Below, piece by piece: positions 4,820 to 63,656 of a DNA stretch of 64,000 nt. The DNA comes from Armatimonadia bacterium. Lineage in GTDB: Bacteria > Armatimonadota > Zipacnadia > Zipacnadales > UBA11051. Position numbers and translations under genes: made by a program. Every line of letters starts with the position of its first letter. Within the stretch, counting starts at the first letter, position 1. The notes beneath the pieces were generated by a model. It was not told the DNA's origin. It ran no database searches and worked only from the letters and a program-made list of their open reading frames with translations. The stretch spans positions 1,966 to 65,965 of the forward strand of contig JBDKRC010000027.1 in assembly GCA_039683575.1 (NCBI GenBank), written 5' to 3'.

Positions 4820-6226
<1,407 letters not shown>

Positions 6227-6275
6227 TCATGTGGAGGCGGTTGAGTAGACGATTCGTTATCTACCACGTCTACGA

Positions 6276-6343
6276 GCGGGCGAGGCGCCCGCACTACGCG
6301 TGGAGGGTGTAGCGGTCGGAGGCGGGCGAGATGCCCGTCCTGC
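6276..6343 (-). repeat. Two REP-like hairpins in the atpG-atpD spacer
   Basis: GCGGGCGAGGCGCCCGCACTAC (6276-6297) and GGCGGGCGAGATGCCCGTCCTGC (6321-6343); same core as the copies at 4661 and 8809/8873. Confidence 0.75.
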
Positions 6344-6368
6344 CGAGATTGGTTCGTTTTGCAGCGGC

Positions 6369-7232
6369 TTAGCCGCCCTGGGCGAGGGCGTCGGCGCCTG
6401 ATATTACTTCAAGAAGCTCGGTCGTGATTGCCGTCTGCCGCGCCCGGTTGAGCTCGAGGGTCAGGTTGTCGCGCAGATCCGCCGCGTTCTCGGTCGCCGC
6501 CGACATGGACGTCATGCGGGCCGCGTGCTCTGAGGCGATGGACTGCAGGAGCATGTTCACGATCTGGGCGTCTACCGTGCGCGGGAGCAGGCCGGCCAGC
6601 AGTTCCGGGGCGGGTGGCTCGAACAGGTATTCCGCTGCCGCCTCAGCCTCGTGCTCCTCGCCGACGATGGGCAGGAGCTGAAACAGCGTCGGGGGACGGC
6701 GCAGTGGCGAGACGAATTGCGTGTAGGCGATGTGAAGCTGGTCTATGCCGCCCTCGTCGAACATCCTGCGGGCCTGACGGGCGATGCGGCTGCCGTCGCG
6801 GCTCTCGTTGCCAGTCTCGGGGGTGTCCAGCTTCGCCACGACGTTCCAGCCCAGCCGGCGGGCGTAATCGGCGGCTTTGACGCCGATGGGCAGGACCTTG
6901 ACCGGGACCTTCTGGGCCTCGATAAACTGTTCGGCGGCGCGGAGAATGTTGGCGTTGTGGCTTCCGGCGAGGCCTTTGTCGCCGGCGACGACAATGAGCC
7001 CGATGTTGGCAACCGGGCGTTCCTGCAGATAAGGATGCAGGTCGGTCGGGACATTTCCGGCGAGGTTGCGCATGATCCCGCTCAGGTGCTGCAGGTACGC
7101 GCGGCTGGCCTCAACGCGCGGTTGAGTGCGCTTGAGTTTTGACGCCGCGACCATCTGCATGGCGCGGGTAATCTGCCAGATGTTGCTGACCGCCTTGATC
7201 TTTCGGCGGATCGCGCGCAGGTTCGAAGCCAT
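6369..7232 (-). CDS. atpG: ATP synthase F1 gamma subunit
   Basis: ITRAMQMVAASK, DKGLAGSHN and SEHAARMTSMSAATENA...NRARQTAITTEL motifs. Confidence 0.97.
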   Translation of the reverse strand: MASNLRAIRRKIKAVSNIWQITRAMQMVAASKLKRTQPRVEASRAYLQHLSGIMRNLAGNVPTDLHPYLQERPVANIGLIVVAGDKGLAGSHNANILRAAEQFIEAQKVPVKVLPIGVKAADYARRLGWNVVAKLDTPETGNESRDGSRIARQARRMFDEGGIDQLHIAYTQFVSPLRRPPTLFQLLPIVGEEHEAEAAAEYLFEPPAPELLAGLLPRTVDAQIVNMLLQSIASEHAARMTSMSAATENAADLRDNLTLELNRARQTAITTELLEVISGADALAQGG

Positions 7233-9501: not shown

Positions 9502-9550
9502 GTAGGGCAGGCGGCTCGCCTGCCCAGCCCGGACGAGCCGCCCGCGCTAC
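9502..9550. repeat. Inverted REP-like doublet in the atpF-atpH spacer
   Basis: GTAGGGCAGGCGGCTCGCCTGCCC ... GGACGAGCCGCCCGCGCTAC. Confidence 0.65.
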
Positions 9551-19276: not shown

Positions 19277-22177
19277 CTACTTGCCCAGATAGAGGGCGGT
19301 GGTTTCGCCGGGGCTTAGGCGAATCTTCAGGTATGAGCCCTCGCGGTTGGTGGTGAAGGGCACTGTGACCCCGCCTGGGACCATTACGTCTGTGGCTTGC
19401 TTGACGGGCTGGCGTACGTGGACCGTGGCTTCAGCGGGCTTGTCCACATTGCGGTTGAGAAGGAAGAGGTAGCGGTCGCCATTTTCGGCAACGCGGAGGA
19501 CCGTTTCGAGGTCGGTGTTGTCGCTGCTGGCCGCCGGGGCGGCGTAGCTGGCGATGGACTTCCACAAGTCGAGGCGCTGGCTACCGAGCGTGGCGAGGGA
19601 ATCGGCGCGGAGGAAGTCACCATTGAGCTTGCCGGAGCGCAGCGCGGAGCTGGCGGCGTCTTTCCCGGGGCCAAGTCTGGCCTCGAGCACGCCGGAGGGT
19701 CGGGCCAGTTCATCGTACTTGCCGGCCTGGCCGAGGGTGACAAGCAGTTTGCCGGGCTCCATGAAGCCCAGCAGCTTGCGCTGGAGGTCGGCGGAGAGGT
19801 AGCTGGCTTGCGGGACGATGACCACGTTGTAGTCGCTGAACTTCGCACGATTCTGCTCGAAGTACTCATCGGGGACGAGTTCGTAGAGGATGCCGCCCTT
19901 GTAAAGCAGGTCGTGGAGGCCGAGTATCTCCGAGTAGGCGGTGAGGTCGGGACGCTCGTTGCGCATGGTGGCGCTGGGCTGGAGGACCAGCACCCTGGAG
20001 GGGGCGATCTGGCTGTGGGTCAGGACCCAGTCGAGGTTCTCCATTGCACGCTTGGCGACGGCGAGGCCGGGGGCGCAGTAGCGGACTGTGGTGAGGTCCC
20101 ACTGGGGGTTGAACCAGTTGCCATTGTACTCAAAGATGTAGGCGCCACCGGTGTATGAGTACCACTTCATCTGCAGCGAGCGGCCCCAGATGGCGGTGCT
20201 GCTGATGTGCTTTTCGAGGCCGCGGCGCTGGGCGCGCTCGTCGTCCACGCGGTTGCCCTCCTCCTGCTTGCCCCAGAAGTCCTCCATGTAGCCGAGACCC
20301 TTGCTGTGGAAGCGGCTCAGGCTGTTGAGGTAGACGTTGCCAACCTGCATCTGCGGCGCGCCACGATGGTAGGAGAGCACGTCGCAGGCTTCGACGGCGT
20401 CGGCGCCGTTGATGAGGTGGAGCAGGGCGCTGTGGCGGGCGACGACCGGTTTGGACGGGTCGGCGGCTTTGAGGGTGGTGTAGATCAGGTTGAGGTAGTC
20501 GCGATAGGAATCGTCGCGGAAGGCCTCGAAGACGGCGACGAGCGGGGTGACTTCCTTGCGGCCGATATAGGCGTCGGGCGGGGGCTGGACGGCGGCGAAG
20601 TCGGCATAGGTGGTACCGAGGGCCTGGTTGAGGGCGGCGATGGTCTGGTATTTGGCCTGCAGCCAGGTACGGAAGGCGGCTTCGGCGTGGGGGCCGTAGC
20701 CGGTCTCGCGGAGGCCCTTACTGGTTGTGAAGTAGGGATAGGCTTCCTGAGCGACCTCATAGAACAGAATGCGCGGCTCGTTTTTGCAGAAGGTGGCGTA
20801 CTTGGTCAGGTAGTCCTTGATATAGGCGCGGACGGCGGGGTGGAAGTAGTTGAGCGAGCGGTCGGTGCCGCGGGATTCGCCTTTGAGGCCATCCTGGGAG
20901 AGCTTGAAGAAGTCGGGTTCGTCCTTGTACTTGTCCACGAGCCACTGGGGGGCGTACATGTATTCGTGAAGGCCAAAGCCGAGGTAACCGAACGTGCCGG
21001 AGTAGCCGAGCGCCTGCAGGTCATCGCAGGCTTTGGTGATGTTGCTGAAGTCTGTCTCGGTCTCGGTGTGGACTTTGGGGGCACCGGGTGCGGAGGAGTG
21101 GAACTCGAGATCGAAGGGCCTTTCCCAGGCAGAGAACTGGGTGGGGCTCCAGCAGCCGTAGAGCAGGCGGTTGAGCTTGCCCGAGGGCTGGAAGGGCTTG
21201 ACCGAGCGGGGCTGGCGGCCGAGCTCTTTCGGGAGGGAAGCGGGCTTGAACGCCGATTGGGCGCGGGCCATGTCCGCTTTGAGGGTATCGAGGGTTGACT
21301 GGAGCTTATTCGCTTCGGCGGTGAAGGCGGCCATGTCGGCGTCGGCTTTGGACTTGAAGGCCTTGATGTAGGCGAGATAGGTCTGGTTGAGTTGCTCGTC
21401 GGCGGCGGTGAAGCGGGCCTCCATGTCCGCGTCGGGCTTCTGGCCGACGTAGGCACGGGTGCGCTGGAGGTTGCGGAGCTGGTGCTCGACGTCGGCGGAG
21501 GCGAAGACGAGGGCATTGTAGCGCGCGCCGGACTGGTAGAAGGCGTCGCTGGCCGTCTGGTGCTTGACGAAGCGGCTAATCGGGCCGGAACCGGTCTCAA
21601 CGCCCATGGTCTGGTTGGTCCAGACGTCCACGGGGAGGTTGTCGGTGGTGCCGAGGTTCTCGATGGTGATGTCGTCGAACCACACGCGGCCGACGGCGTT
21701 CTCGACCGAGAGCATGAACTGCGCAGTCGATTCGATGGTGGAGGAGATGATCAGACCGCTGCGGGCAGTCCAGTCGCCCGATTGCTTCTCGCGGATCTGC
21801 TGGGGGATGGAGCGGTCCTTGATGGTGCCCTCGTCGGCGGCGCGCCAGTTGATCCGGAAGCCGATGGCGGAGGACGGTACCGCTTCGTCTTTGCGGATAT
21901 AGACCGTGATGCGGTAGAGCTTGCCCGGCTCGAACGTGGCCGCGGGGGCGCAGGCGAAGAGGCGGTCGCCGGAGCGGGTCGCGGTCACCTTCAGGGACTG
22001 CTTGCCGCTGTGGGCGGCGGTGGGGTCGAGTTCCATGGTGGACTGGGACTCAGAGGGCCACTTGGTCCACTTGAGCTCAGAGGCCTCGAAGTCCTGGTTG
22101 TCGAGGAGTTGGAGGTTCTGGGCGGAGGCCAGGGAGGCCAGGATGACCGGCAGAGCTAGAAGGTGGGCTATTCTCAT
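19277..22177 (-). CDS. Secreted GH42-like beta-galactosidase with N-terminal CBM4/9-like domain and C-terminal trimerisation-like domain
   Basis: Signal peptide, NQDFEA...HSGKQSL CBM motif, NYFHP...FYEVAQE, FRTWLQAKYQTIAALNQALGT (GH42 hallmark) and YNVVIVP. Confidence 0.7.
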   Translation of the reverse strand: MRIAHLLALPVILASLASAQNLQLLDNQDFEASELKWTKWPSESQSTMELDPTAAHSGKQSLKVTATRSGDRLFACAPAATFEPGKLYRITVYIRKDEAVPSSAIGFRINWRAADEGTIKDRSIPQQIREKQSGDWTARSGLIISSTIESTAQFMLSVENAVGRVWFDDITIENLGTTDNLPVDVWTNQTMGVETGSGPISRFVKHQTASDAFYQSGARYNALVFASADVEHQLRNLQRTRAYVGQKPDADMEARFTAADEQLNQTYLAYIKAFKSKADADMAAFTAEANKLQSTLDTLKADMARAQSAFKPASLPKELGRQPRSVKPFQPSGKLNRLLYGCWSPTQFSAWERPFDLEFHSSAPGAPKVHTETETDFSNITKACDDLQALGYSGTFGYLGFGLHEYMYAPQWLVDKYKDEPDFFKLSQDGLKGESRGTDRSLNYFHPAVRAYIKDYLTKYATFCKNEPRILFYEVAQEAYPYFTTSKGLRETGYGPHAEAAFRTWLQAKYQTIAALNQALGTTYADFAAVQPPPDAYIGRKEVTPLVAVFEAFRDDSYRDYLNLIYTTLKAADPSKPVVARHSALLHLINGADAVEACDVLSYHRGAPQMQVGNVYLNSLSRFHSKGLGYMEDFWGKQEEGNRVDDERAQRRGLEKHISSTAIWGRSLQMKWYSYTGGAYIFEYNGNWFNPQWDLTTVRYCAPGLAVAKRAMENLDWVLTHSQIAPSRVLVLQPSATMRNERPDLTAYSEILGLHDLLYKGGILYELVPDEYFEQNRAKFSDYNVVIVPQASYLSADLQRKLLGFMEPGKLLVTLGQAGKYDELARPSGVLEARLGPGKDAASSALRSGKLNGDFLRADSLATLGSQRLDLWKSIASYAAPAASSDNTDLETVLRVAENGDRYLFLLNRNVDKPAEATVHVRQPVKQATDVMVPGGVTVPFTTNREGSYLKIRLSPGETTALYLGK

Positions 22178-22312
22178 CTTCAGTCTTTCACCTGATCGCA
22201 GAGGTTACTGTTCGGTCAGCCGCCCGACTGGAAGCCGGGCTCTGGTGCCACAATCTCACTCATTGGAATGAGTTCGCGGCAAGGATGCCGCTCGTACGAC
22301 CGATACGACAGC

Positions 22313-23146
22313 TCAGTCATCTTTACCGTCGAATAGGGCTTCGGCGGCGCCCCAGAAGAACTGGTGAATGTCCTCGTCTGAGAGTCCCATCCCGTGAAGC
22401 AGGTCGAGGTCCTTTTGGATCATGGCGGGAGCGCTGCGCGGGAGGCTGCCGGGATAGGTGTCGGTGCCGTACATCAGGCGGCCGGACTGGCAGAACGTCG
22501 TAGCTTTGTGCAGGGCGTCTGTGCGCCATACGTCGGGTGTGCCACGCGAGCAGTCGATCCACATCCGGCTGCCCTGCTGGCGCGTACCGGCGACGGAGCG
22601 AAAGTGGCCGAAGAGGGCGAGGCATTCGTCTGTCCAGGGCCAACTGATGTGGGCCATGGCGAACTTGAGGCGTGGGAAGTTGATGAGGGCCTCGTAGAAC
22701 ACGGGGCGGCAGAAGCGGGAGCTGTCGCCGAAAGCGTAGAGGATGCCGGAGTGGAAGTGGATGGGCTTGCCGAGGGCCTCCATCTTCTCGTAGAGCGGGT
22801 AGAGGAACTCGTCGCTGGCATACCAGTGGTTGGGGATCATCTTGATGCCATGCAGGCCGCGGTCCACGAGAGCGTATTCGACGAGGTCAAGGATGCCTTC
22901 GGTGCGCGGGTCGGCCCAGAAAAGGGCGTAGATGCGGTCGGGGTCGGCGGCCTGGATCGCGGCGGCGCTGTCGATGGCGGCGCGGAACTCGGCAGCGGGT
23001 GGCGGGGGGCAGAGCTCGCGGATGTTGCCGGGGTGCTGGCTGAAGAAGCTGATGCGGGTCAGACCCACGGCGTCCATGGCGCGCAGGACGTCATCGGCGG
23101 TTTCGGTACCGTTGTAGGTGTGGACATGGCAGTCCCAGGTTTGCAT
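22313..23146 (-). CDS. Amidohydrolase family (amidohydro_2) metal-dependent hydrolase
   Basis: DCHVH, GIKMIP, IHFHSG, MAHISWPW and LMYGTD motifs; ATG at 23146 behind GGAGG. Confidence 0.85.
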   Translation of the reverse strand: MQTWDCHVHTYNGTETADDVLRAMDAVGLTRISFFSQHPGNIRELCPPPPAAEFRAAIDSAAAIQAADPDRIYALFWADPRTEGILDLVEYALVDRGLHGIKMIPNHWYASDEFLYPLYEKMEALGKPIHFHSGILYAFGDSSRFCRPVFYEALINFPRLKFAMAHISWPWTDECLALFGHFRSVAGTRQQGSRMWIDCSRGTPDVWRTDALHKATTFCQSGRLMYGTDTYPGSLPRSAPAMIQKDLDLLHGMGLSDEDIHQFFWGAAEALFDGKDD

Positions 23147-23213
23147 GAAAGGCCTCCGGAAAGAGTAACGGCGAAAACGGAAAACAGTCGAACGCGAGAC
23201 GACGTGGGACACG

Positions 23214-23291
23214 GAGATTCTTCGCTTGGCGGACGCGGACGTCCGTGCTCAGAATGACAAGGCTGGGTGACAACTGACAACTGACAACTGA
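23214..23291. repeat. Half copy of the GTCATxCTGA...GATxCTTCG repeat family plus a (TGACAAC)x3 heptamer tract
   Basis: GAGATTCTTCGC...GCTCAGAATGACA (23214-23259) matches 63709-63736; TGACAAC x3 at 23268-23288. Confidence 0.65.
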
Positions 23292-25445
23292 TCACGGCCA
23301 GAAGGCGTAGGTTGTAGTGTTTGTGAACAGGCCGTAGAGGATCCATAAGCAGCCGGTTACTACGTCGGCCAGGATCAGACCGAAAGCGCAGGCTCTGACG
23401 CCCCGCATGGCTTTCATGCCCGCGTAACGCATGACTACTGTCTTGGTGGTCCAGGCCAGGAACATTGGAAACCACATGTGGGCCATGTACCAGGTGGTGG
23501 AGAGGGCGAAGCCGGCGGGATGCAGCGGCCAGCCGATCCACCGGGTGCGCAGGAGCATCATGCCGAAGTAGACGCCGTAGCCGATGACCGTGGCCCAGAT
23601 GCGGCCCCACTGCACGCTTTGGTTAAGTGTGATCCAATTGGCGAGTTGGTTCCACGCTTCCATGCATGAGCCGGGCATCCACTTGGCCCAGTTCATCCCC
23701 AATCCCTCTTTGTACCCCAGGTAGAGCGTCAAGAAGAAGCCCAGCGCGACGGCGAAGGGTACCATGACCATGCCCGCGAGCAGCAGGCGGCGTTCGCTGC
23801 CGCCGGTTTGGCGGGCGAGGTAAAGGCCCTCAAGCTGGTGCGGGAAGGGGATGTTGCGCAGGCCGCGCGTGAAGCCCATGAAGAGCGACAGCGAGGTGAG
23901 GTTCTGCAGGCCAAGGAGGCGCGGGCCGAGGATGTTGCCCTGGGTGACCGTGGGGCCGAGGCGCTCGAGTTCGTGGGTGGGAAGGCCCATCTCAGCGCGG
24001 ATGCGACCCACGATGATGGTCATGGCGTAGTACTGGATGAAGAAGCCAAGAATGACGAGCGGCGAGAGCTTGGTGTACCAGGCGATGATACAGACGCCGA
24101 CGAAGCCGGCGAGGAAGATCAGGAAGGAGGTGCGGTAGGACAGGGCCTCGCCGGAGTCGTCCTCGGGGAGGAGGTTGGAGTCCGACTGTAGGGCGGGGGC
24201 TTGTACCCCGCCGGTGGTGGCGCCCGAGCGGCCGGGTACGAGCCCCGGCCCTACAGCGGAGGCTTCGGAGCGGCCGGCAAGCCAGGCTTCGAGGTCGGTC
24301 CTGATTCTGATCCAGACACGGCGGAAGTAGCCACGGGCCGCCCAGAGGGAGAAGCCGAGGATGGCGAGGTAGCCGCCGAAGCTCTGCTCCTTCATATAAG
24401 GAAATTCCCGAATGTTGGTGAGACCCAGCCACGCGACAAAGATCGCCTCGGCTTTCCAGAAGAGGTAGAAGAACCAGAGCGAGAGGCTGAGCTCGGTCGG
24501 GAGCAGGAGGCCGAGGCCGATGACGAAGGGGTAGAAGCAGATCCAGAAGCGGCCGACGGCGTTCCAGGGCTTGGCGATGAAGTACTTCTGGAGGTTGAAG
24601 GTCTCGCTCTGGCTGATCTTGATCGCCGCGCGTGGGATGGAGGGGTAGAACTCGTGGAAGCCATTGAGGAGGTTGATGACGACGATCAGAGCGGCGGCGG
24701 CCCAGAAGGCCCAGTGGCGGAAGGCCCGCGGGTTGGTTTGCGAGAGTTCGTAGGGAAGCTGGACGATCGGGAAGCTCATGCGCTCCTGCTCGACCCAGCG
24801 TTTACGCAGAATCACGGCCAGCCCGGCGGGAGCGGCCCAGAGGATGGTATACAGGAGCCACCAGCGCAGGACCGGGCCGAGCCACGGGCGGTAGTTGCGG
24901 GGCTCGAAGATGCTGGTGCCACCGAGCCACAGACGGTTGAGGGCGGGCTGGTCGTTGACGGTCATGGAGAGCGGAAGCTCCTCCATGAAGAGGTCTTCCC
25001 AGTGGTTGACCTCGTTGGCGAACACGGCCGGGCCCTGCATGGTGGCGAAGGTGGTCTTCATCGTGTCAATGCCCAGCGGCCCGGTGCCGAGGGACAGAAG
25101 AATGAAGAAGGCGATGAGCTCGGCGGGGGCAAAGGCGATCCTGGGGGCGAAGCGTAGCAGGGCGGCGTTGACCAGCCGAAAGAGGAACAGTAGGAAGACC
25201 ACGTTGTAGAAAAGCGCGACGACAGTGGGGTCCTCGACGCCACGGGGGCCGGTGAGGTAGGTCATGAAGTAGGCGTTGAGGGGCGCGACCAGGAAGGCGA
25301 TGATGATGACACGCCAGGATATGCCGCGGGCGAGCGGAAAGGGCTTTGCGTCGGTGCTGGGAGTGACGGCGGCAGGATTGGGGTGCGAAGGTTCGTGCAA
25401 GATCAGGGCTCCGGATGGTGTTTCTGCGGCAGATGCGTGTTTCAA
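23292..25445 (-). CDS. DUF6785/DUF6784-type polytopic membrane protein (putative transporter) carrying an in-frame REP doublet
   Basis: About 16-18 hydrophobic segments; RKRWVEQERMSFPIVQLP and WPLHPAGFAL motifs typical of this family; family named from memory. Confidence 0.7.
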   Translation of the reverse strand: MKHASAAETPSGALILHEPSHPNPAAVTPSTDAKPFPLARGISWRVIIIAFLVAPLNAYFMTYLTGPRGVEDPTVVALFYNVVFLLFLFRLVNAALLRFAPRIAFAPAELIAFFILLSLGTGPLGIDTMKTTFATMQGPAVFANEVNHWEDLFMEELPLSMTVNDQPALNRLWLGGTSIFEPRNYRPWLGPVLRWWLLYTILWAAPAGLAVILRKRWVEQERMSFPIVQLPYELSQTNPRAFRHWAFWAAAALIVVINLLNGFHEFYPSIPRAAIKISQSETFNLQKYFIAKPWNAVGRFWICFYPFVIGLGLLLPTELSLSLWFFYLFWKAEAIFVAWLGLTNIREFPYMKEQSFGGYLAILGFSLWAARGYFRRVWIRIRTDLEAWLAGRSEASAVGPGLVPGRSGATTGGVQAPALQSDSNLLPEDDSGEALSYRTSFLIFLAGFVGVCIIAWYTKLSPLVILGFFIQYYAMTIIVGRIRAEMGLPTHELERLGPTVTQGNILGPRLLGLQNLTSLSLFMGFTRGLRNIPFPHQLEGLYLARQTGGSERRLLLAGMVMVPFAVALGFFLTLYLGYKEGLGMNWAKWMPGSCMEAWNQLANWITLNQSVQWGRIWATVIGYGVYFGMMLLRTRWIGWPLHPAGFALSTTWYMAHMWFPMFLAWTTKTVVMRYAGMKAMRGVRACAFGLILADVVTGCLWILYGLFTNTTTYAFWP
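24188..24254. repeat. Intragenic inverted REP-like doublet
   Basis: GTAGGGCGGGGGCTTGTACCCCGCC (+, from 24188) and GTAGGGCCGGGGCTCGTACCCGGCC (-, from 24254), inside the 23292-25445 ORF. Confidence 0.8.
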
Positions 25446-25522
25446 GGATGATGACGGGCGGCGACCCCAGAGGGTCGCACGGAGAGCCCTCCCACACCAC
25501 TGTAATGGTCCAGGCGACGACC

Positions 25523-26938
25523 CTACTGGTAGAGCTTGATACGGGCGTAGCTGATTGTGTTCTGGGTGCCTGCGCGGGGTCCGAGAAGCTCCAGAGTGTT
25601 CGAGGGCAGGGAGCCGCCGCGAGGCGTGGTGGTGAAGAAGTCCACCAATGGGTACTGCAGGGGCAGTCTGAGCGGCGTCCCGAAGGTCCCGTCGGCGCTC
25701 AGTTCGCTCACCCGGTTGTCGTACGTGCGCTTGCCGTCGGCGGCGATGTTCAGAAGGCTGTAGCAGACGATCAGGCGGCCGTCAGGCGTGATCTGGAAGC
25801 GCGGTTTGCCCTGCGGAATGTCTGGGGAGCCGAGCTGGCCCTGGAGCAGCGGTTTCTTCAGGAGCACACGGCCGTCGCGAACCTGGGCGTACATGATGGA
25901 GTGCAGGCGGGTCTTTATGTCCGGGAAGTACTTGTCGCGCAGGCGCAGGTCCACCGGGGCCTCAAACCACAGAATGTGGGCTGTGCCGTCGGGAGCGACG
26001 TAGAGATCGCCGGGGAAGAGCCAGCCGCCGGTGGCCATGGTGTTGCTGAGTTCGATCCAGGGGGCGAAGTCCTGCTTGCTGAGGTCCGGGGTCCAGGTGT
26101 AGTACAGGCGCCGCCAGCGATTGCCCCACTGACGGCCCATCTTCTCCTTGTCGGCGACGGGGTCTCTGACGCGGTCCCAGTTGTCGAAGGCGGCCGCTCC
26201 GCAGAAGTGGACGGCGCGGCCCTGCAGGGCGACGGTGGGGTAGTTGGCGCGGCAATGTACGGCGCCGTAGGGCTCCACGTCGCCGGCGGCAAGGTCAGGC
26301 CAGGAAAGGTAGCCGCTGCGCAGGGTGGCACCGGTGCGGTCGAGCAGGGCCCAGTGCGAGCCGTCGTTGCCGAGGTTATTGAGCAGCAGGCAGTCGCCGG
26401 AAGGGCCGTCCGCTGTGAAAGTGCGGTAGGAGTGCTCGGTGAAAGCGGGTTGACCGGACCACTGCGGCGCGATGGTGACGAAGGGGGCGGCCGGGTCTGA
26501 GGCTTTGAACCGGAGGATCTCCGGGCGCGCGGGGCCGCCGCCCTGCTGCTGCGGGTCGGTGAGAAGCGTGGGGTTGACCGACATCAGCAGGCGGCCATCC
26601 GGGAAGGCGGCGAGGGGACAAGGCTCGCGCGTGCGGTCCTTCGGGTCGGTCTGCACGAGCTTCCAGCCGGTGGGAGTGCGGCGGTAGAGCGTCCAGCGGA
26701 CGTTGTTGAGCGGTTTGACGTTCGGGAGGGTTTCAAGGCCGCTGGCGAAGACCTCGTCGCCCGAGCGGGCGAGGCAGGTGGAACTCCAGCACCACATCGG
26801 GTCGGAGCCGTTGTCAGCGGGGGTGTAGGTGAAGACCTCTTCCTCGGCCTCGACGACAGGGGCGAGCGGGGCGCGCGAGGGCTGAGCGGCGGCGCAGGAG
26901 GCGAGCACGAGCAGCGCAAGGAGGAGGGTGGTTGGCAT
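25523..26938 (-). CDS. Secreted hypothetical protein, possibly beta-propeller/BNR-like
   Basis: Signal peptide MPTTLLLALLVLASCAAAQ at ATG 26938; beta-rich sequence; no firm family. Confidence 0.65.
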   Translation of the reverse strand: MPTTLLLALLVLASCAAAQPSRAPLAPVVEAEEEVFTYTPADNGSDPMWCWSSTCLARSGDEVFASGLETLPNVKPLNNVRWTLYRRTPTGWKLVQTDPKDRTREPCPLAAFPDGRLLMSVNPTLLTDPQQQGGGPARPEILRFKASDPAAPFVTIAPQWSGQPAFTEHSYRTFTADGPSGDCLLLNNLGNDGSHWALLDRTGATLRSGYLSWPDLAAGDVEPYGAVHCRANYPTVALQGRAVHFCGAAAFDNWDRVRDPVADKEKMGRQWGNRWRRLYYTWTPDLSKQDFAPWIELSNTMATGGWLFPGDLYVAPDGTAHILWFEAPVDLRLRDKYFPDIKTRLHSIMYAQVRDGRVLLKKPLLQGQLGSPDIPQGKPRFQITPDGRLIVCYSLLNIAADGKRTYDNRVSELSADGTFGTPLRLPLQYPLVDFFTTTPRGGSLPSNTLELLGPRAGTQNTISYARIKLYQ

Positions 26939-52207: not shown

Positions 52208-54385
52208 ATGCTCAGGCAGACTGCCGCGCCGCTGGTGATGCCGTATCCGCGGGAAATGAGTGTCGGGCGGGGAAAGGTCGGGCTTGAGGGGGTGATGATA
52301 CTCGCGGAAGGAGCGGCGGCGAAACGGGCTGGCAAGGCGCTCGCGGCGGGGCTGAAGGACCTGGGGGTGCCCGTGTGGGATGACGGGTATCCGGTCTCTC
52401 TCGTTGTGCTCGAAGAGGCGGACATGCGGGTCAGCCATGAGATGTATGACCTGCAGGTGAAGCGCGAGGGGACGATCATCGCGGCGCCGGCGTATGAGGG
52501 GCTGTACTACGGAGTGCAGACGCTGCTGCAGTTGGTTGAGCCCTCGGCCCCCGAGAAGGCCACAGGCGACGCCGCACCCACGCGGGGCCTCCTGCCGCTG
52601 TGCAGCGTCACAGACTGGCCGCTGAAGCAGATTCGGGGTATTCACACCTACCTGCCCTCGCGGGAGAATCTGCCCTTCTTCAAGCGCTTCATCGAGTGGA
52701 TGGGGCGGCACAAGCTGAACACGATCTTCCTGGAAGTCGGCGGGGGAATGGAGTACCAGCGGCATCCGGAAGTGAACAAGGCCTGGAAGCGCTTCTGCAA
52801 GGAAGCCATGGCCTACCCCGGGGGGCCGGACGCGCTGCAAGACTCACAGTGGTTCTTCAAGAATTCCACCCACACAGAGTTGGCCGGCGGCAGCTACCTG
52901 ACACAGAAGGAATGCCGCGAGATCGTCAAATGGTGCCGCGACAACGGCATCGAGGTCATGCCCGAGGTGCAGTCGCTCAGCCACTCCTACTACCTCACCA
53001 TGGCCCACCCGGAGATCGCCGAGGTGGCCGAGGACCCCTGGCCGGACAACTACTGCCCCAGCAATCCCCGCAGCTATGAACTGTACTTTGAGATCCTCGA
53101 GGAAATCATCGAGGTCTTCGAGCCGCGCCTGATCCACATCGGGCACGACGAGGCGTATATCTTCAAGTTCTGCCCAAAGTGCAAAGACCGCGAGGCAGCG
53201 GAGATATATGCCACCGACATCACGAAGGTGCATGACTGGCTGGCGGAGCGGGGGATCAAGACTGCAATCTGGGGCGACAAGCTGCTGGAGATCCACCACC
53301 CCAACGGTACGACCTATGGCGGCGTGGAACGCAACATTACGCGCTATGGCAAGCAGTTCCACCTGCCGGCTACCAACCGCTGCGTGGACCTGATCCCCAG
53401 GGACGTCCTCATCTTCGACTGGTACTGGAGCCTGAGCTACGAGTCGGCCAAGATGCTCGCCGACAAGGGCTTCCAGATGATCTACGGCAACTTCCACGGC
53501 CCCAGCTTCCAGGATTGGGCCAAGCACCGCCAGAACCCGGCGCTGCTCGGTGGTGAGACTTCGCTGTGGTGCGAGGTGGACGAGTATTCGATAGGGCGCA
53601 ACGGGACCTTCCACAACATCCTGTGGGGCGCCAATGACCTCTGGTCGGACTTTGATCCCGATGCGGACCGGGCGAAGATCGTGAGCGACATAGCGGCGGT
53701 CATGCGGCGGGACCGCCAGAGGCTGGGGAAGCACAAGTCGGTAGTCCTCTCCCCCACTCCCAAGCAGTTCCGGCCGGTTGACATGACGACCGCCGGCGCG
53801 CGGGGGATGTACCCCGGCGACAGCCCCGAAGGCGGCCTGAGCTGCCTGCCACGCGGCAAGCAGAAGCTCGGCGGCGTGGAATTCCTCATTCCCAAGGACG
53901 GCAAGCAGAAGGCGACGGTGCCGGCGGTAGACTGGCATGTGCGGTCGTGCCCGCCGATACCGGTGGACGGCAAGGCCGAGGCGCTGGCCTTCCTGCACAC
54001 CACGACGGTGCCGCGCGTCCATGCGCCGACGTACTACAGCCTGAACCTGGGCCCGAACCTGATCGGGGCCTATCTGGTGGAGTATGAGGACGGCAAGACG
54101 GTCGAGGTGCCGCTGGAGTATGGCTGGAACATAGACAGCTTCAACAGCGGCTACATGATCGGCAAGGGCGGCGACCAGACCGACGTCATCGGCGCGTATG
54201 ACTATGCCGCCGACCCGGTGCTGGCGGGCGAGACGCCCGAGGGGCGCAGGTACACAATCTTCATGTACGAATGGGTGAACCCACGACCGAAGGTACCAAT
54301 CCGCAACATTCGGCTCACGTGGCAGGCTGGGTACAGCGGCGGGGTGATTGCGCTTTTGGCGGTGACGGTTGTTGAGCGGCTGTAA
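52208..54385 (+). CDS. GH20 beta-N-acetylhexosaminidase-like protein
   Basis: GLYYGVQTL, DWPLKQIRG, VMPEVQSLSH, IHIGHDE (catalytic DE pair) and IWGD motifs. Confidence 0.85.
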   Translation: MLRQTAAPLVMPYPREMSVGRGKVGLEGVMILAEGAAAKRAGKALAAGLKDLGVPVWDDGYPVSLVVLEEADMRVSHEMYDLQVKREGTIIAAPAYEGLYYGVQTLLQLVEPSAPEKATGDAAPTRGLLPLCSVTDWPLKQIRGIHTYLPSRENLPFFKRFIEWMGRHKLNTIFLEVGGGMEYQRHPEVNKAWKRFCKEAMAYPGGPDALQDSQWFFKNSTHTELAGGSYLTQKECREIVKWCRDNGIEVMPEVQSLSHSYYLTMAHPEIAEVAEDPWPDNYCPSNPRSYELYFEILEEIIEVFEPRLIHIGHDEAYIFKFCPKCKDREAAEIYATDITKVHDWLAERGIKTAIWGDKLLEIHHPNGTTYGGVERNITRYGKQFHLPATNRCVDLIPRDVLIFDWYWSLSYESAKMLADKGFQMIYGNFHGPSFQDWAKHRQNPALLGGETSLWCEVDEYSIGRNGTFHNILWGANDLWSDFDPDADRAKIVSDIAAVMRRDRQRLGKHKSVVLSPTPKQFRPVDMTTAGARGMYPGDSPEGGLSCLPRGKQKLGGVEFLIPKDGKQKATVPAVDWHVRSCPPIPVDGKAEALAFLHTTTVPRVHAPTYYSLNLGPNLIGAYLVEYEDGKTVEVPLEYGWNIDSFNSGYMIGKGGDQTDVIGAYDYAADPVLAGETPEGRRYTIFMYEWVNPRPKVPIRNIRLTWQAGYSGGVIALLAVTVVERL

Positions 54386-57743: not shown

Positions 57744-58880
57744 ATGCTATCCAACCTAACCACAATCCATAGCCGTCGCACCGGACGCTTCTCCTCCTGG
57801 GACACCTCGGGCCGCAATGCCGATGCCTGGACGATTGCGCCCGGGGAGACGCGTGTTCTCGCCGACATCTCCGGCCCTGCCCAGATCACCCACCTGTGGA
57901 TGACGCAGGCGAACCACTATCGCGAGTGCCTGCTGAAGATCACATGGGACAATGCCGCCTATCCCAGCGTGGTCGCGCCGCTCGGGGACTTCTTTGGCCT
58001 GGGGCATGGGCTGGTTAGCTCGTACCAGTCGGCGCTCTTCACGGCCTCGACGGCCAGGCCGAATCAGTTCAACCAGGGCTGCGCGCTGAACTGCTATGCG
58101 CCGATGCCCTTTCGCGAGCGGTGCGTGGTGGAGCTTATGAACGAAAGCGACCAGCCGCACCGGCAGTACTTCTATGTGGACTATGAGACGCTGGAGGAGG
58201 TGCCGGAGGACGCGGGGTACTTCCACGCGGAGTTCCGGCGCGCGAACCCCTTCGGCGGCTGGGGGCATGAGATTACCGTCAATACCCCGCTGGCCAACGC
58301 GGTCAATGTCGAGCGGCAGGCGTGGGCGAGCAACTATGTCATCATGGAGAGTCGCGGGCGGGGGCATTACCTCGGGTGCAACCTGTCGGTGACGAACTTC
58401 CAGGGCACCTGGTGGGGCGAGGGGGATGACATGATCTGGGTGGACGGGTACAAGTGGCCGCCGGACCTGCACGGGACGGGTAGCGAGGACTATCTCAACC
58501 AGGCGTGGGGGATGCAGGACAACGCGTTCATGCGCAACGGTTCTTCGATCTTCGAGGGCAACACGAAGGGCTATCAGACGAGCTATGTCTTCCATCTGGA
58601 AAACCCGGTGCGCTTCCAGAAGGAGATCAAGGTAACCATCGAGCACGGGCATGCCAACCATCTCGCCAACGAGATGAGCAGCGTGGGCTACTGGTACCTC
58701 GACAAGCCGGGGAAGGTAGCCGAACCGCCGCCGGTGGCGCAGAGATTGCCGGTGCTGCGCGACAACCAGGGCCACTGGCTGCACGACCCAGAGCGGCAGT
58801 GCCCCGGCAAGCCGGTGAAGCTCACTGACGAGATGCGGCAGAATAAGAAAGAATGGAAGCGTCGCGCCAATCCCGCGTAG
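57744..58880 (+). CDS. Second DUF2961 / GH172-family protein
   Basis: RFSSWDTSGRNAD, APLGDFFG, WWGEGDDMIWVDG...HGTGSEDY and IEHGHAN motifs; ATG at 57744 behind GAGGAG. Confidence 0.9.
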   Translation: MLSNLTTIHSRRTGRFSSWDTSGRNADAWTIAPGETRVLADISGPAQITHLWMTQANHYRECLLKITWDNAAYPSVVAPLGDFFGLGHGLVSSYQSALFTASTARPNQFNQGCALNCYAPMPFRERCVVELMNESDQPHRQYFYVDYETLEEVPEDAGYFHAEFRRANPFGGWGHEITVNTPLANAVNVERQAWASNYVIMESRGRGHYLGCNLSVTNFQGTWWGEGDDMIWVDGYKWPPDLHGTGSEDYLNQAWGMQDNAFMRNGSSIFEGNTKGYQTSYVFHLENPVRFQKEIKVTIEHGHANHLANEMSSVGYWYLDKPGKVAEPPPVAQRLPVLRDNQGHWLHDPERQCPGKPVKLTDEMRQNKKEWKRRANPA

Positions 58881-60944: not shown

Positions 60945-61013
60945 TCATCGGTGCGGAACAACATTGTCGGACATCTGTTGTGAAGTCGTAGCATGATGAA
61001 ACGGGGAGCAACC

Positions 61014-62258
61014 ATGATACGGCATATGCTCGTCCTGGTACTGTGCCTCTCTGCACTGGCAGCAGCGGCCCAGCCCGCCGCTGACGCCGCGAAGCCGTGG
61101 GAGACGTGGCAGCCGCCCCAGGTGGTGCTGCCGCAGCCAAATGCCTTCGACACTTACCTCAAGGCCATCGACCTCAAACTGCGCATAGACCAGCAGCAGG
61201 GCCTGGGCGGTAATCCCCCACCGCCTCCACCGGATGGAGCACGAGACCGCTGGGGCGAGGGCCCACAGGGGGTGCCGCTTCCGGAGCGGGTGGCACTGTA
61301 CGCCGAGGTCCTGACTCTAGTGCGCCAGGCTTTGCGCCAGGAGTGCCGAATCCCGCTTCCGACCGCCTTTGATGAGATGTTGCCCTATCTGGCGGATTTC
61401 AGGGGCCTGGTGCGGCTCCTGGCGATGGAAGCGGAGGTCAAGCGCATTGAGGGCGACTATGGGGCTGCGGCGGAAAGTGCACTTGATGCGCTGCGGGTTG
61501 GTCAAGCCGCCTCCACGCAGCGGATTCTGATCTCGGGACTGGTAGGCATCGCCTCCGAGGCGATAGCGTTTGCGTCCCTGGATGAGACGATACCCGGGCT
61601 CTCGGCTGCGGAGTGCAAGACGGTGCTGGCGCAGTTGCTTGAGATTGAGCGAACGCGGGTGCCAGTGGCGGAGTGGCTGACAGGCGAGGAGGTCTTGACG
61701 CGGGGCTACTTCAAGCAGATAGTCATCGACCCGAAGAAGCACGAGCAATTCCTGGCGGAGGCTAAGGATCTGGGCCCGGAGGCAGACAAGGTATTGGCGG
61801 AGCTTGGCCCCAAGGGCTGGGAGTATATTGGCGAGACGTACGAAGCCCTGCAGCAGTATGCGGCCTTGCCGGGCGCGAAGCGGCCAGCCGAGCCCGCCGT
61901 GCCCGACAGCACCTTCATGAAGATGATCGTGCCTGCCATGACCAGGGTTGTCTTCAAGGCGGATCAATCGTTGACGGCTTTCCGGCTGCATGAGGCGGAG
62001 TTGGCGGTGCGGGCGTACCTGCTGGAGACTGGACGTCTTCCTGAGAGCCTGACCGCGCTGGTGCCCGGCTATCTCCCTGCAGTCCCGGCTGATCCGTTCG
62101 GCGAGGGGCCTCTGCGGGCCAAGGCGGCGACCAACTCACTGCTCATCTATAGCGTCGGGCCTGATGGCGTGGATGATGGTGGCAAGCCGCACAAGGAGCA
62201 GTTCACGAGTCGCGAAAGCAAGGGTGACATCGTTGTCACTGTCGCAATACCACGATAG
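61014..62258 (+). CDS. Secreted helical hypothetical protein with GspG-like C-terminal motif
   Basis: Signal peptide; LPESLTALVPGYLPAVPADPF...LIYSVGPDGVDDGG. Confidence 0.7.
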   Translation: MIRHMLVLVLCLSALAAAAQPAADAAKPWETWQPPQVVLPQPNAFDTYLKAIDLKLRIDQQQGLGGNPPPPPPDGARDRWGEGPQGVPLPERVALYAEVLTLVRQALRQECRIPLPTAFDEMLPYLADFRGLVRLLAMEAEVKRIEGDYGAAAESALDALRVGQAASTQRILISGLVGIASEAIAFASLDETIPGLSAAECKTVLAQLLEIERTRVPVAEWLTGEEVLTRGYFKQIVIDPKKHEQFLAEAKDLGPEADKVLAELGPKGWEYIGETYEALQQYAALPGAKRPAEPAVPDSTFMKMIVPAMTRVVFKADQSLTAFRLHEAELAVRAYLLETGRLPESLTALVPGYLPAVPADPFGEGPLRAKAATNSLLIYSVGPDGVDDGGKPHKEQFTSRESKGDIVVTVAIPR

Positions 62259-62260
62259 TC

Positions 62261-62339
62261 TCGCGTGGCAGGCATGCTCCGCATGCCGGAAGCCCATAGC
62301 GAGACGAGTTCCGGCATGCGGAGCATGCCTACCACGCGA
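62261..62339. repeat. 31-bp inverted repeat (1 mismatch), REP-like doublet
   Basis: TCGCGTGGCAGGCATGCTCCGCATGCCGGAA / TTCCGGCATGCGGAGCATGCCTACCACGCGA. Confidence 0.8.
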
Positions 62340-62357
62340 TCTGGGATGGGAGCCCAC

Positions 62358-63656
62358 ATGGAACATGGCAAGATCGTCCTCATCGGCGCAGGCAGCGCCT
62401 CATTCACAGTCGGGCTCGTGGCCGACCTGCTGATCTCGGATATCGCGGATGAGTGGACCGTCGGGCTGGTGGACATTGACGAGCGGGCCCTGGGCGTGGC
62501 GCGGGGCCTCGTGGAGCGAATGGTGCAGGTCAAGCAGGCGCCTGTGACCGTCGAGGCGTCGCTGGACCGGACGGCAGTGCTGCCGGGCGCTGACATCGTG
62601 GTCACCACCATCGCAGTCGGCGGACGACCGGCATGGGAAGCCGATGTGGTGGTGCCCCAGAAGCATGGTATCTACCAGCCTGTCGGCGACACGGTCTGCG
62701 CCGGGGGCATTTCGAGGGCGCTGCGGCAGATTCCACCCATGCTGGACATCGCGCGGGACGTGGCGCGCCTCTGCCCCACTGCGTACTTCTTCAACTATGG
62801 CAACCCGATGGCGGCGATCACGCGGGCGGTCAACAAGGCCACCGACGCCACCCTGACCGGCCTCTGCCACGGCGTGCAGGGGACGCTGCGGCACCTGTGC
62901 AACTTCATCGGCGTGTCCTACAGCGAGATCAGCTCGCTGTACTTCGGCATGAACCACCTGACATGGATCACGCACTTCACGCGGCATGGCGAGGACCTCT
63001 GGCCGCTGGTGGATGCGAAGCTGGCAAGCGAGCCGCCGTCGGACAATCCCTTCTCATGGGAGCTATACCGCACCTACGGGGCCTTCCCCGCGGTGCTGGA
63101 CCGGCATATCACCGAATTCTACTCGGAGCGATTTGCCCGGGGCGGGTACTACGGCAAGCGACTGGGCGTGGACGAGTTTGACATCCTGGGCTGCATCCAC
63201 GGCGGTGACGAGCGGTATGAGAAGATGGCCGCGCAGGCAGAGGGACGCGAGCCGCTCGAGGAGAGCCTGTTTCAGCGCACGCTCGGGGAGCACGAGGCGC
63301 TGATCCCGATCCTCGAGTCGATGTTCTCCGACCGGCAGCGCATTTTCCCGATGAATGTGCCGAACCGAACGGTGGCGGGCGTGCCTGAGGGGTTTGTGCT
63401 GGAGATGCCGGTAGTGGCGGCGCGGGCGGGGTGTCTCCCGACGGCGCTCCCGCCGGTGCCGACGTCCTTGCTGGCGATCACGAATGAGGCGCTGTACGGG
63501 GTGGAACTCACGGTCGAGACAGCGCTGACGGGGGACCGCAAGGCCTTCGTCGAAGCGCTGCTGTATGACGGGTGCGTGCAGGAGCTAAGCGCGGCGGAGG
63601 CGCTGGCGGATGACCTACTGGCCGCACACAAGGCGCATTTGCCTCAGTTTGCCTAG
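62358..63656 (+). CDS. Family 4 glycoside hydrolase (NAD+/Mn2+-dependent, alpha-galactosidase/glucosidase type)
   Basis: IGAGS, GDTVCAGG, NYGNP, GLCHG and GMNHLTW motifs; ATG at 62358 behind GGGAG. Confidence 0.9.
   Translation: MEHGKIVLIGAGSASFTVGLVADLLISDIADEWTVGLVDIDERALGVARGLVERMVQVKQAPVTVEASLDRTAVLPGADIVVTTIAVGGRPAWEADVVVPQKHGIYQPVGDTVCAGGISRALRQIPPMLDIARDVARLCPTAYFFNYGNPMAAITRAVNKATDATLTGLCHGVQGTLRHLCNFIGVSYSEISSLYFGMNHLTWITHFTRHGEDLWPLVDAKLASEPPSDNPFSWELYRTYGAFPAVLDRHITEFYSERFARGGYYGKRLGVDEFDILGCIHGGDERYEKMAAQAEGREPLEESLFQRTLGEHEALIPILESMFSDRQRIFPMNVPNRTVAGVPEGFVLEMPVVAARAGCLPTALPPVPTSLLAITNEALYGVELTVETALTGDRKAFVEALLYDGCVQELSAAEALADDLLAAHKAHLPQFA

Follow-up and report, generated by a model that had tools for sequence, protein, structure and literature searches.

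How does a repetitive extragenic palindrome (REP), an element named for lying outside genes, come to be translated within the gene of a membrane protein, and what becomes of it there? The question arises in a stretch of 64,000 nucleotides from contig JBDKRC010000027.1 (hereafter the window, i.e. the whole 64-kb stretch analysed), which belongs to an Armatimonadia metagenome-assembled genome (MAG) from wastewater or sludge and where an inverted pair of GTAG-headed hairpins occupies positions 24186-24256 inside a long open reading frame (ORF) on the minus strand. The initial annotation of this DNA regarded the pair as a tolerated or exapted repeat insertion, and it is the first of these two options that is retained here. 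The best explanation, to which a probability of about 0.85 is given, is that the pair is a REPIN (REP doublet forming hairpins) linked to a REP-associated tyrosine transposase (RAYT), and tolerated as a passenger within a permissive loop of a working transporter resembling the oligopeptide transporter (OPT) family, and that this loop has been hit repeatedly. Exaptation fits less well, as sister lineages have deleted the element or let it decay, and the arms are read in different frames.

At the DNA level, the element reads CTGTAGGGCGGGGGCTTGTACCCCGCCG - 15 nt - CGGCCGGGTACGAGCCCCGGCCCTACAG. A repeat search delimited two arms of 28 nt each (24186-24213 and 24229-24256), complementary at 25/28 positions (89%) and separated by a spacer of 15 nt (24214..24228), or of 17 nt when counted between the strict 25-nt motifs. 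Arm 1, on the plus strand, consists of a CT-GTAG head followed by a hairpin (stem 24192-24198 / 24206-24212, loop GCTTGTA) and agrees with the family consensus GTAGGGCGGGGGCTTGTACCCCGCC; arm 2 lies inverted, with its head at 24251-24254 on the minus strand, and carries the stem variant GGCCGGG/CCCGGCC, in which pairing is kept perfect by a double change found in no other of 129 family copies. Both arms begin with CT-GTAG-GG and present a 7-bp stem and a 7-nt loop 3' of the GTAG, as GTAG-tagged REPs do, and their inverted, head-out arrangement around a short spacer, folding into a single long hairpin, is that of a REPIN. Folded as DNA, a single arm reaches -9.3 kcal/mol and the doublet (24184-24258) -32.2 kcal/mol (z = -5.3). 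In the minus-strand transcript, the REPIN-like long hairpin extends over 24181..24260, with a short flanking inverted repeat TCCG/CGGA, and in a 106-nt context the RNA folds at -64.5 kcal/mol (z = -5.7), none of 200 shuffles being equally good, which bears out the strong mRNA hairpin that the repeat had been expected to add. At four loci of the window (10100, 10571, 24186 and 62259), inverted repeats reach at least 25/28 matches across no more than 40 nt of spacer, vs. none in 20 first-order Markov simulations of it. The 13-mer head alone is not above chance in the window (5 hits vs. 3.6 expected), so that the evidence lies in the whole architecture; besides, no Rfam family matched within 22000-26500 at E <= 1. 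Considered as that whole, 24186-24256 is a genuine REPIN, made of two inverted GTAG-tagged REP hairpins.

The host ORF (23292..25445, minus strand) encodes 717 aa, or 702 aa from the likely start ATG 25400, which is used by both a public annotation and a codon-usage gene caller. Pfam recognizes DUF6785 (3e-116) and DUF6784 (2e-26) in this polytopic membrane protein and reports no OPT domain; sequence, arms and Pfam all agree with the earlier statement that a pair of GTAG hairpins lies in frame within a 717-aa ORF of DUF6785 type. The REP-coded stretch (24186..24257, minus strand) amounts to 72 nt, i.e. codons 397-420 of the 717-aa ORF (382-405 of the 702-aa product), and translates into the 24 residues AVGPGLVPGRSGATTGGVQAPALQ, the junction peptides with the transporter being SEASAVGPGLVPGR and SGATTGGVQAPALQSDSNLLPEDDSGEALSYR. 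In an AlphaFold model built with 35 homologues (mean predicted local distance difference test, pLDDT, 84.8; predicted template modelling score, pTM, 0.87), the product is an all-helical polytopic membrane protein, in which pLDDT falls below 50 solely at residues 1-37 and 400-421, the latter corresponding to the REP-coded peptide. The model places this peptide between helix 371-389 and helix 437-456, in line with the loop between transmembrane segments originally proposed for it, and predicts it to be a disordered stretch rich in Gly, Pro and Ala. The Arg-rich RGYFRRVWIRIR just ahead, together with the positive-inside rule, suggests that the loop faces the cytoplasm. With Foldseek, the top match in the PDB is barley Yellow Stripe 1 (YS1, 7wst) of the OPT family (E = 1.3e-6, TM 0.60/0.70, 11% identity); at the level of the modelled fold, calling the host protein a transporter appears reasonable, and the combination of DUF6785 and DUF6784 may represent a divergent OPT-like transporter family.

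Comparison of gene sequences indicates that the host gene works despite its insertion. L100, an independent conspecific MAG that is 96.5% identical in DNA over 11.6 kb, carries the same doublet, and its gene differs from that of the window at 34 positions, of which 29 are synonymous and only 5 non-synonymous, a ratio that points to a working gene under purifying selection. Two of these 5 non-synonymous changes affect the same spacer codon (24219-24220) and are the only differences between the two strains within the element. In metatranscriptomes (n=3), two short contigs map to the gene body, one on each side of the REP, for which DNA carry-over is possible; none of the contigs from these three runs crosses the REP.

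The extra length of the loop becomes apparent once it is set against orthologues. In an alignment of 35 homologues, where the loop was measured between the conserved VW and GEA motifs, 22 of the 35 have about 13 residues between these landmarks vs. 53 in the window protein, so that orthologues devoid of the REP do have a shorter loop, by about 40 residues. The closest insert-free orthologue, P0002, shares 76% identity with the window protein and has a loop of outgroup length and pattern. The lineage-specific expansion covers 24162..24299 on the minus strand (about 40 residues, T383-P428) with the REP doublet at its centre. The expectation that an insertion would map exactly onto the repeat holds only in part, since the REP does lie inside the extra stretch and accounts for 24 of its approximately 40 residues. 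In a maximum-likelihood tree made without the loop columns, the window protein falls in a 12-member clade with a Shimodaira-Hasegawa-like approximate likelihood ratio test (SH-aLRT) support of 96, composed of three subclades, namely (P0002,(window,P0001)), (P0003,(P0006,P0008,P0010)) and (P0016,(P0004,P0005,P0007,P0009)). All members of this clade carry an insert (11/12) except P0002, the closest relative of the window lineage.

At the DNA level, the loops of eleven clade orthologues, retrieved along with the basal P0025 from outside the clade, form a series of states around the same site. L001 and the CAZZDO MAG keep an intact REPIN whose spacer measures 27-31 nt; in the latter, the REP marks the very point where the gene breaks between contigs L082 and L046. 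In L002, an element of L001 type has its head mutated to GCAG and its left arm split by a 21-nt (7-codon) hairpin of a second family, GCGGACG-GAA-CGTCCGC, and in L102 an in-frame deletion took most of the right arm of another L001-type element. The right arm stands alone, with a stem of the GC/GC subfamily, in L003 and L004, the latter harbouring in addition a second-family REP (reverse complement GCGTGGTGCGGACGTCTCGTCCGC) that matches intergenic copies of the window at 58877 and 6274. L101 holds a relic, L005-L007 contain inserts with no recognisable REP, and L008 (P0002) is insert-free. Two inserts were considered as REPs and rejected, neither having REP features: that of L005 (P0003, gene 5001-7145), which codes for some 40 residues (CEKSAALPFLSECANKANTGSYRDMQ) and is AT-rich although the rest of the gene is GC-rich, and an independent 17-aa insert in P0025. 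In the window and L003, translation of the right arm gives GGVQAPALQ, vs. RGTSPRPT in L001, L002 and CAZZDO, and with frames differing in this way there is no conservation of the peptide as such. That REPs have hit this loop more than once is evident from the second-family inserts of L002 and L004. With gain and loss repeated across a single clade, the element has the standing of a passenger rather than of a functional module.

Where these elements come from can be approached through the wider family. A scan with the pattern GTAGGGCSSGGSCTYGTACCSSGCC, using one genome per species, found at least 91 stretches, spread over at least 15 assemblies and with many copies per genome; among the stretches listed, nearly all are labelled Armatimonadota (Armatimonadia, Zipacnadia), several deriving from "WS1" MAGs. 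The copies often stand at contig ends, as expected from a repeat that breaks assemblies. Among 129 copies in the retrieved loci, where genes were predicted with a codon-usage log-odds caller, 105 are intergenic, most of the others sit ahead of the true Met start, and about 90% are extragenic, making the family dispersed and predominantly extragenic in related genomes; the apparently intragenic copies in L031, L056, L059, L060, L083, L095 and L098 turned out to be start-codon overcalls with a real Met downstream of the REP. Head-out doublets make up 16 of the 129 copies, their common form having a 22-27-nt spacer and short inverted flanks, and the two variable stem positions are GG/CC in 80 copies, GC/GC in 47, CG/CG in 1 and unpaired in 1. 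In wastewater metagenomes, the assembler word depth rises to 1400-2600 over 24188-24211 vs. about 6.5 in the flanks (200-400x), contigs break at the REP, and others, with different flanks, stop within the arm, which marks the REP as multi-copy in the habitat of origin. As side observations, single exact copies of the motif were met on contigs binned as Planctomycetota (L051, JAPLOD01) and Anaeromyxobacteraceae (L054, DASTPH01), which could mean either that these contigs were misbinned or that the family extends further.

RAYTs are Y1/HUH enzymes that recognize REP hairpins in single-stranded DNA. ORFs with an HUH motif were found in five loci from different genomes (L017, L021, L033, L088 and L092), each reaching 104-110 bits against the NCBIfam model NF047646 'REP-associated tyrosine transposase', for which the cut-off is 80, and matching Pfam Y1_Tnp. 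The same REP lies some 10-50 nt from the end of the RAYT coding region in all five (the distance in L088 being counted from the stop of the downstream continuation of an apparently disrupted RAYT), and in L092 it stands on both sides of the gene, in inverted orientation. RAYT genes flanked by this REP are thereby found in relatives of the source organism, and the five loci match the REPtron arrangement, i.e. a RAYT flanked by REPs, already described elsewhere (Di Nocera, De Gregorio and Rocco, 2013, BMC Genomics 14:522, PMC3733652). The recurrence of the motif outside genes had been set beforehand as one of the tests of the initial annotation, and the motif did recur, in at least 91 stretches, mostly extragenic and beside RAYT genes in related genomes. 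Judging from these sequence comparisons, the 24186 element belongs to a REP family spread over Armatimonadota and tied to RAYT. Two observations on these loci can be added, i.e. that the RAYT frame of L088 (5680-6440) is apparently interrupted and resumes downstream, possibly as a pseudogene or through a sequencing error, and that MAG JAUVVY01 contains tandem arrays of at least 5 REP units with 33-nt and 41-nt periods (L033:6578-6734 and L047:772-960), the L033 array beginning about 40 nt past the RAYT stop.

Within the window, eleven other sites carry GTAG hairpins (4660, 6274, 8872, 9502, 10106/10155, 10575/10618, 33424, 37372, 45112, 58877 and 62313); their stems are those of other subfamilies, and the codon-usage gene caller places every one of them between genes. 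The likeness of architecture once drawn between the intragenic doublet and those at 9502, 10106 and 10575 holds for the latter two, which are head-out with different stems, but not for 9502, a looser heterodimer. The fourth strong inverted repeat of the window (at least 25/28) covers 62259-62345, i.e. the spacer between genes 60993-62258 and 62346-63656. In-frame copies are not restricted to the transporter. In another Armatimonadia MAG, a single REP of the same family is read in frame (TVGRGLVPRPA; L043:1771-1795) within a 715-aa glycoside-hydrolase-like gene, the window orthologue of which (52208-54385) has KDGKQKAT at that place and no REP; in this second gene, the two sequences make up a clean pair of filled and empty sites. 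A third gene with an in-frame copy is probably found in L040 (1698-1722), where a REP arm is read as GGVQAPALQ in codons 43-51 of a 596-aa ORF with a protein-like N-terminus; no orthologue of it was found among the retrieved loci.

From these data the following course of events can be proposed. A REPIN copy would have landed in the codons of the central, probably cytoplasmic, loop of the transporter, most likely through RAYT-mediated insertion. It would have survived there because the loop tolerates added length, 72 nt preserve the frame and the frames used are free of stops. A TAG stop occurs in just one of the three frames of the GTAG arm, and no frame of the inverted arm is closed; with so few stop frames survival within an ORF is not improbable. 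The gene would still be made and functional, the repeat adding a disordered 24-residue stretch to the protein and a very stable hairpin to the mRNA or single-stranded DNA, and the insertion was presumably neutral. On the scale of the clade, the loop has gained palindromic inserts repeatedly and loses them by decay and deletion.

Several results weigh against this account of a tolerated passenger. First, the L001 and CAZZDO copies represent one inherited insertion, with the same flanks, the same spacer length and a spacer identical at 19/27 positions (70%), and yet their arms are identical at 52/54 positions (96%) vs. 71% at the third codon positions of the gene. The arms are consequently not drifting neutrally, while the spacer evolves at about the neutral rate, and passenger status alone does not account for such conservation, which could come from hairpin-templated correction, conversion from other copies, re-insertion or selection. 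Second, the exact subfamily of the 24186 element is present only once in the 64-kb window. Third, no joint corresponding to an empty site was seen in four DNA metagenomes, as far as assembler contigs, which hide rare variants, can tell. Fourth, some 16 further extra residues of the loop are not REP-like, with TDLEAWLAGRSEAS before the REP part and SDSNLLP after it; an older decayed hairpin was sought in these approximately 60 extra nucleotides of the window loop, and a weak 5-bp complementarity at most was found.

Among the alternatives, a single ancient insertion in the ancestor of the 12-member clade, followed by vertical descent with decay and by secondary loss in P0002, retains some plausibility although it is judged unlikely. 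In the 11 other members of this well-supported clade (SH-aLRT 96) the insert position does coincide, the right arm is followed by ...ALQS(D/E)... in an identical frame in both the window and L003, and an approximately unbiased (AU) test does not reject the grouping of the insert-bearing rows as a clade without P0002 (p = 0.084). Nevertheless, P0002 groups with the window lineage, again with an SH-aLRT of 96, and has the exact outgroup loop, which a single insertion could explain only through the exact removal of some 120 nt, mostly non-REP. The subclades moreover differ in stem subfamily, spacer (15-17 vs. 27-31 nt), frame and distance to the EDD motif, and arms remaining near the consensus are hard to square with third positions of the gene that are only 56% identical. 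Even under common descent, the lineage-specific second-family hits in L002 and L004 mean that the loop was hit repeatedly anyway.

A more speculative reading, which can be entertained as a tentative possibility, would make the loop a landing pad: a resident REP hairpin would recruit RAYT or hairpin-directed recombination, so that further REPs insert (L002, L004), arms are kept near the consensus while the spacer drifts (L001/CAZZDO) and deletion finally erases the element (L102). If true, REP systems would routinely generate length variation in transporter loops, and with such a coding site the maintenance of REPIN arms could be put to a natural, clock-calibrated test.

Exaptation, in which the hairpin would have been recruited by the host as mRNA or DNA, e.g. 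for a translation pause, for mRNA stability or processing or as a protein-binding site, and then kept by selection, is considered improbable. The great stability of the mRNA hairpin (-64.5 kcal/mol, z = -5.7), the 96% identity of the L001/CAZZDO arms next to a spacer (70%) close to third positions (71%), and the unique compensatory double change preserving the 7-bp stem of window arm 2 could all be read as signs of selection on the structure. The same stem conservation is nonetheless displayed by extragenic copies of the family and is as such a property of the REP family, not of this site. Besides, the transporter is conserved across sister lineages in which half of the element is gone (L102), one arm is split (L002) or missing (L003, L004), or the insert is decayed or unrecognisable (L005-L007, L101), P0002 has no element at all, frames differ among lineages with no peptide conserved, and the 22000-26500 region matched no Rfam family. 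As for an artefact, i.e. an assembly error at a multi-copy repeat or an ORF that is in fact a pseudogene or a fusion of two genes, short-read metagenome contigs do break at the REP and the CAZZDO orthologue is split there over two contigs, but it is most improbable given that the flanks together make up one conserved 700-aa protein, each contributing a half, with a single OPT-like domain in the model, that L100 has the identical arrangement independently, that a 74-nt contig of run X2 spans 24185-24258 without any difference, that L001 and L002 have the REP on single contigs and that 29 synonymous vs. 5 non-synonymous changes exclude a pseudogene.

As a tolerated RAYT-linked passenger, the 24186 element takes its place beside systems already known. 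Intragenic GTAG REPs were catalogued in 2013, over half of them being dimers coding for 20-30 residues, and in one reported case, recB of Xanthomonas campestris and X. oryzae, REPs stand at about the same site in orthologues (PMC3733652). Like these elements, those described here combine a GTAG head with a short GC-rich stem-loop, an association with RAYT and alternative complementary stem bases, and are mostly extragenic with a minority wholly within ORFs, the head-to-head dimers of the catalogue having 20-100-nt spacers. Unlike them, they belong to Armatimonadota and have a particular stem/loop sequence, both of which are absent from that catalogue, and they provide in a single loop a series of intact, nested, half-deleted, decayed and empty states across a clade of orthologues. 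In Pseudomonas fluorescens SBW25, REPINs are mobilised in trans by RAYT and their arms are more conserved than the spacer (Bertels and Rainey, 2011, PLoS Genet 7:e1002132, PMC3116915). The resemblance extends to the inverted doublet and spacer, the long hairpin, the over-representation of doublets, the RAYT with the same REPs and the better conservation of arms than of spacer; in contrast to the extragenic SBW25 REPINs, the present copy is translated, and it is a putatively mobile element.

For in-frame coding insertions, the initial annotation had pointed to Rickettsia palindromic elements (RPEs), which, as cited in PMC3733652, are in-frame palindromic inserts in ORFs that remain functional, adding surface or loop peptides (Ogata et al.). 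According to the same account, RPE-4 and RPE-6 of R. conorii form a CGTC-tagged super-family without a dedicated transposase, and RPE-1 is longer. Like RPEs, the element described here is a palindrome in frame in a working gene; being GTAG-tagged, 72-80 nt long and RAYT-linked, it differs from RPEs as these are characterized there, and on sequence features it would work like an RPE without being a member of that family. The general statement that GTAG REPs are mostly extragenic therefore holds (about 90% here), but coding insertions are known not from Rickettsia only, since intragenic GTAG dimers have been documented beyond that genus (PMC3733652).

Intragenic REP dimers being already known, what is new concerns the phylum, the membrane-transporter host and the quality of the decay series. 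Armatimonadota joins the phyla with a REP/RAYT system, and a transporter joins the proteins that carry translated REP dimers. Within one orthologous loop, the natural series of intact, nested, half-deleted, decayed and absent elements comes with its own neutral yardstick, namely the surrounding codons, and the maintenance of REPIN arms at fixed positions, be it by selection, conversion or re-insertion, becomes directly measurable. On the practical side, a warning is that assemblies break inside the host gene at the repeat. As regards the genomic surroundings, the neighbours of the host gene are glycoside hydrolases (GH42-like and GH172).

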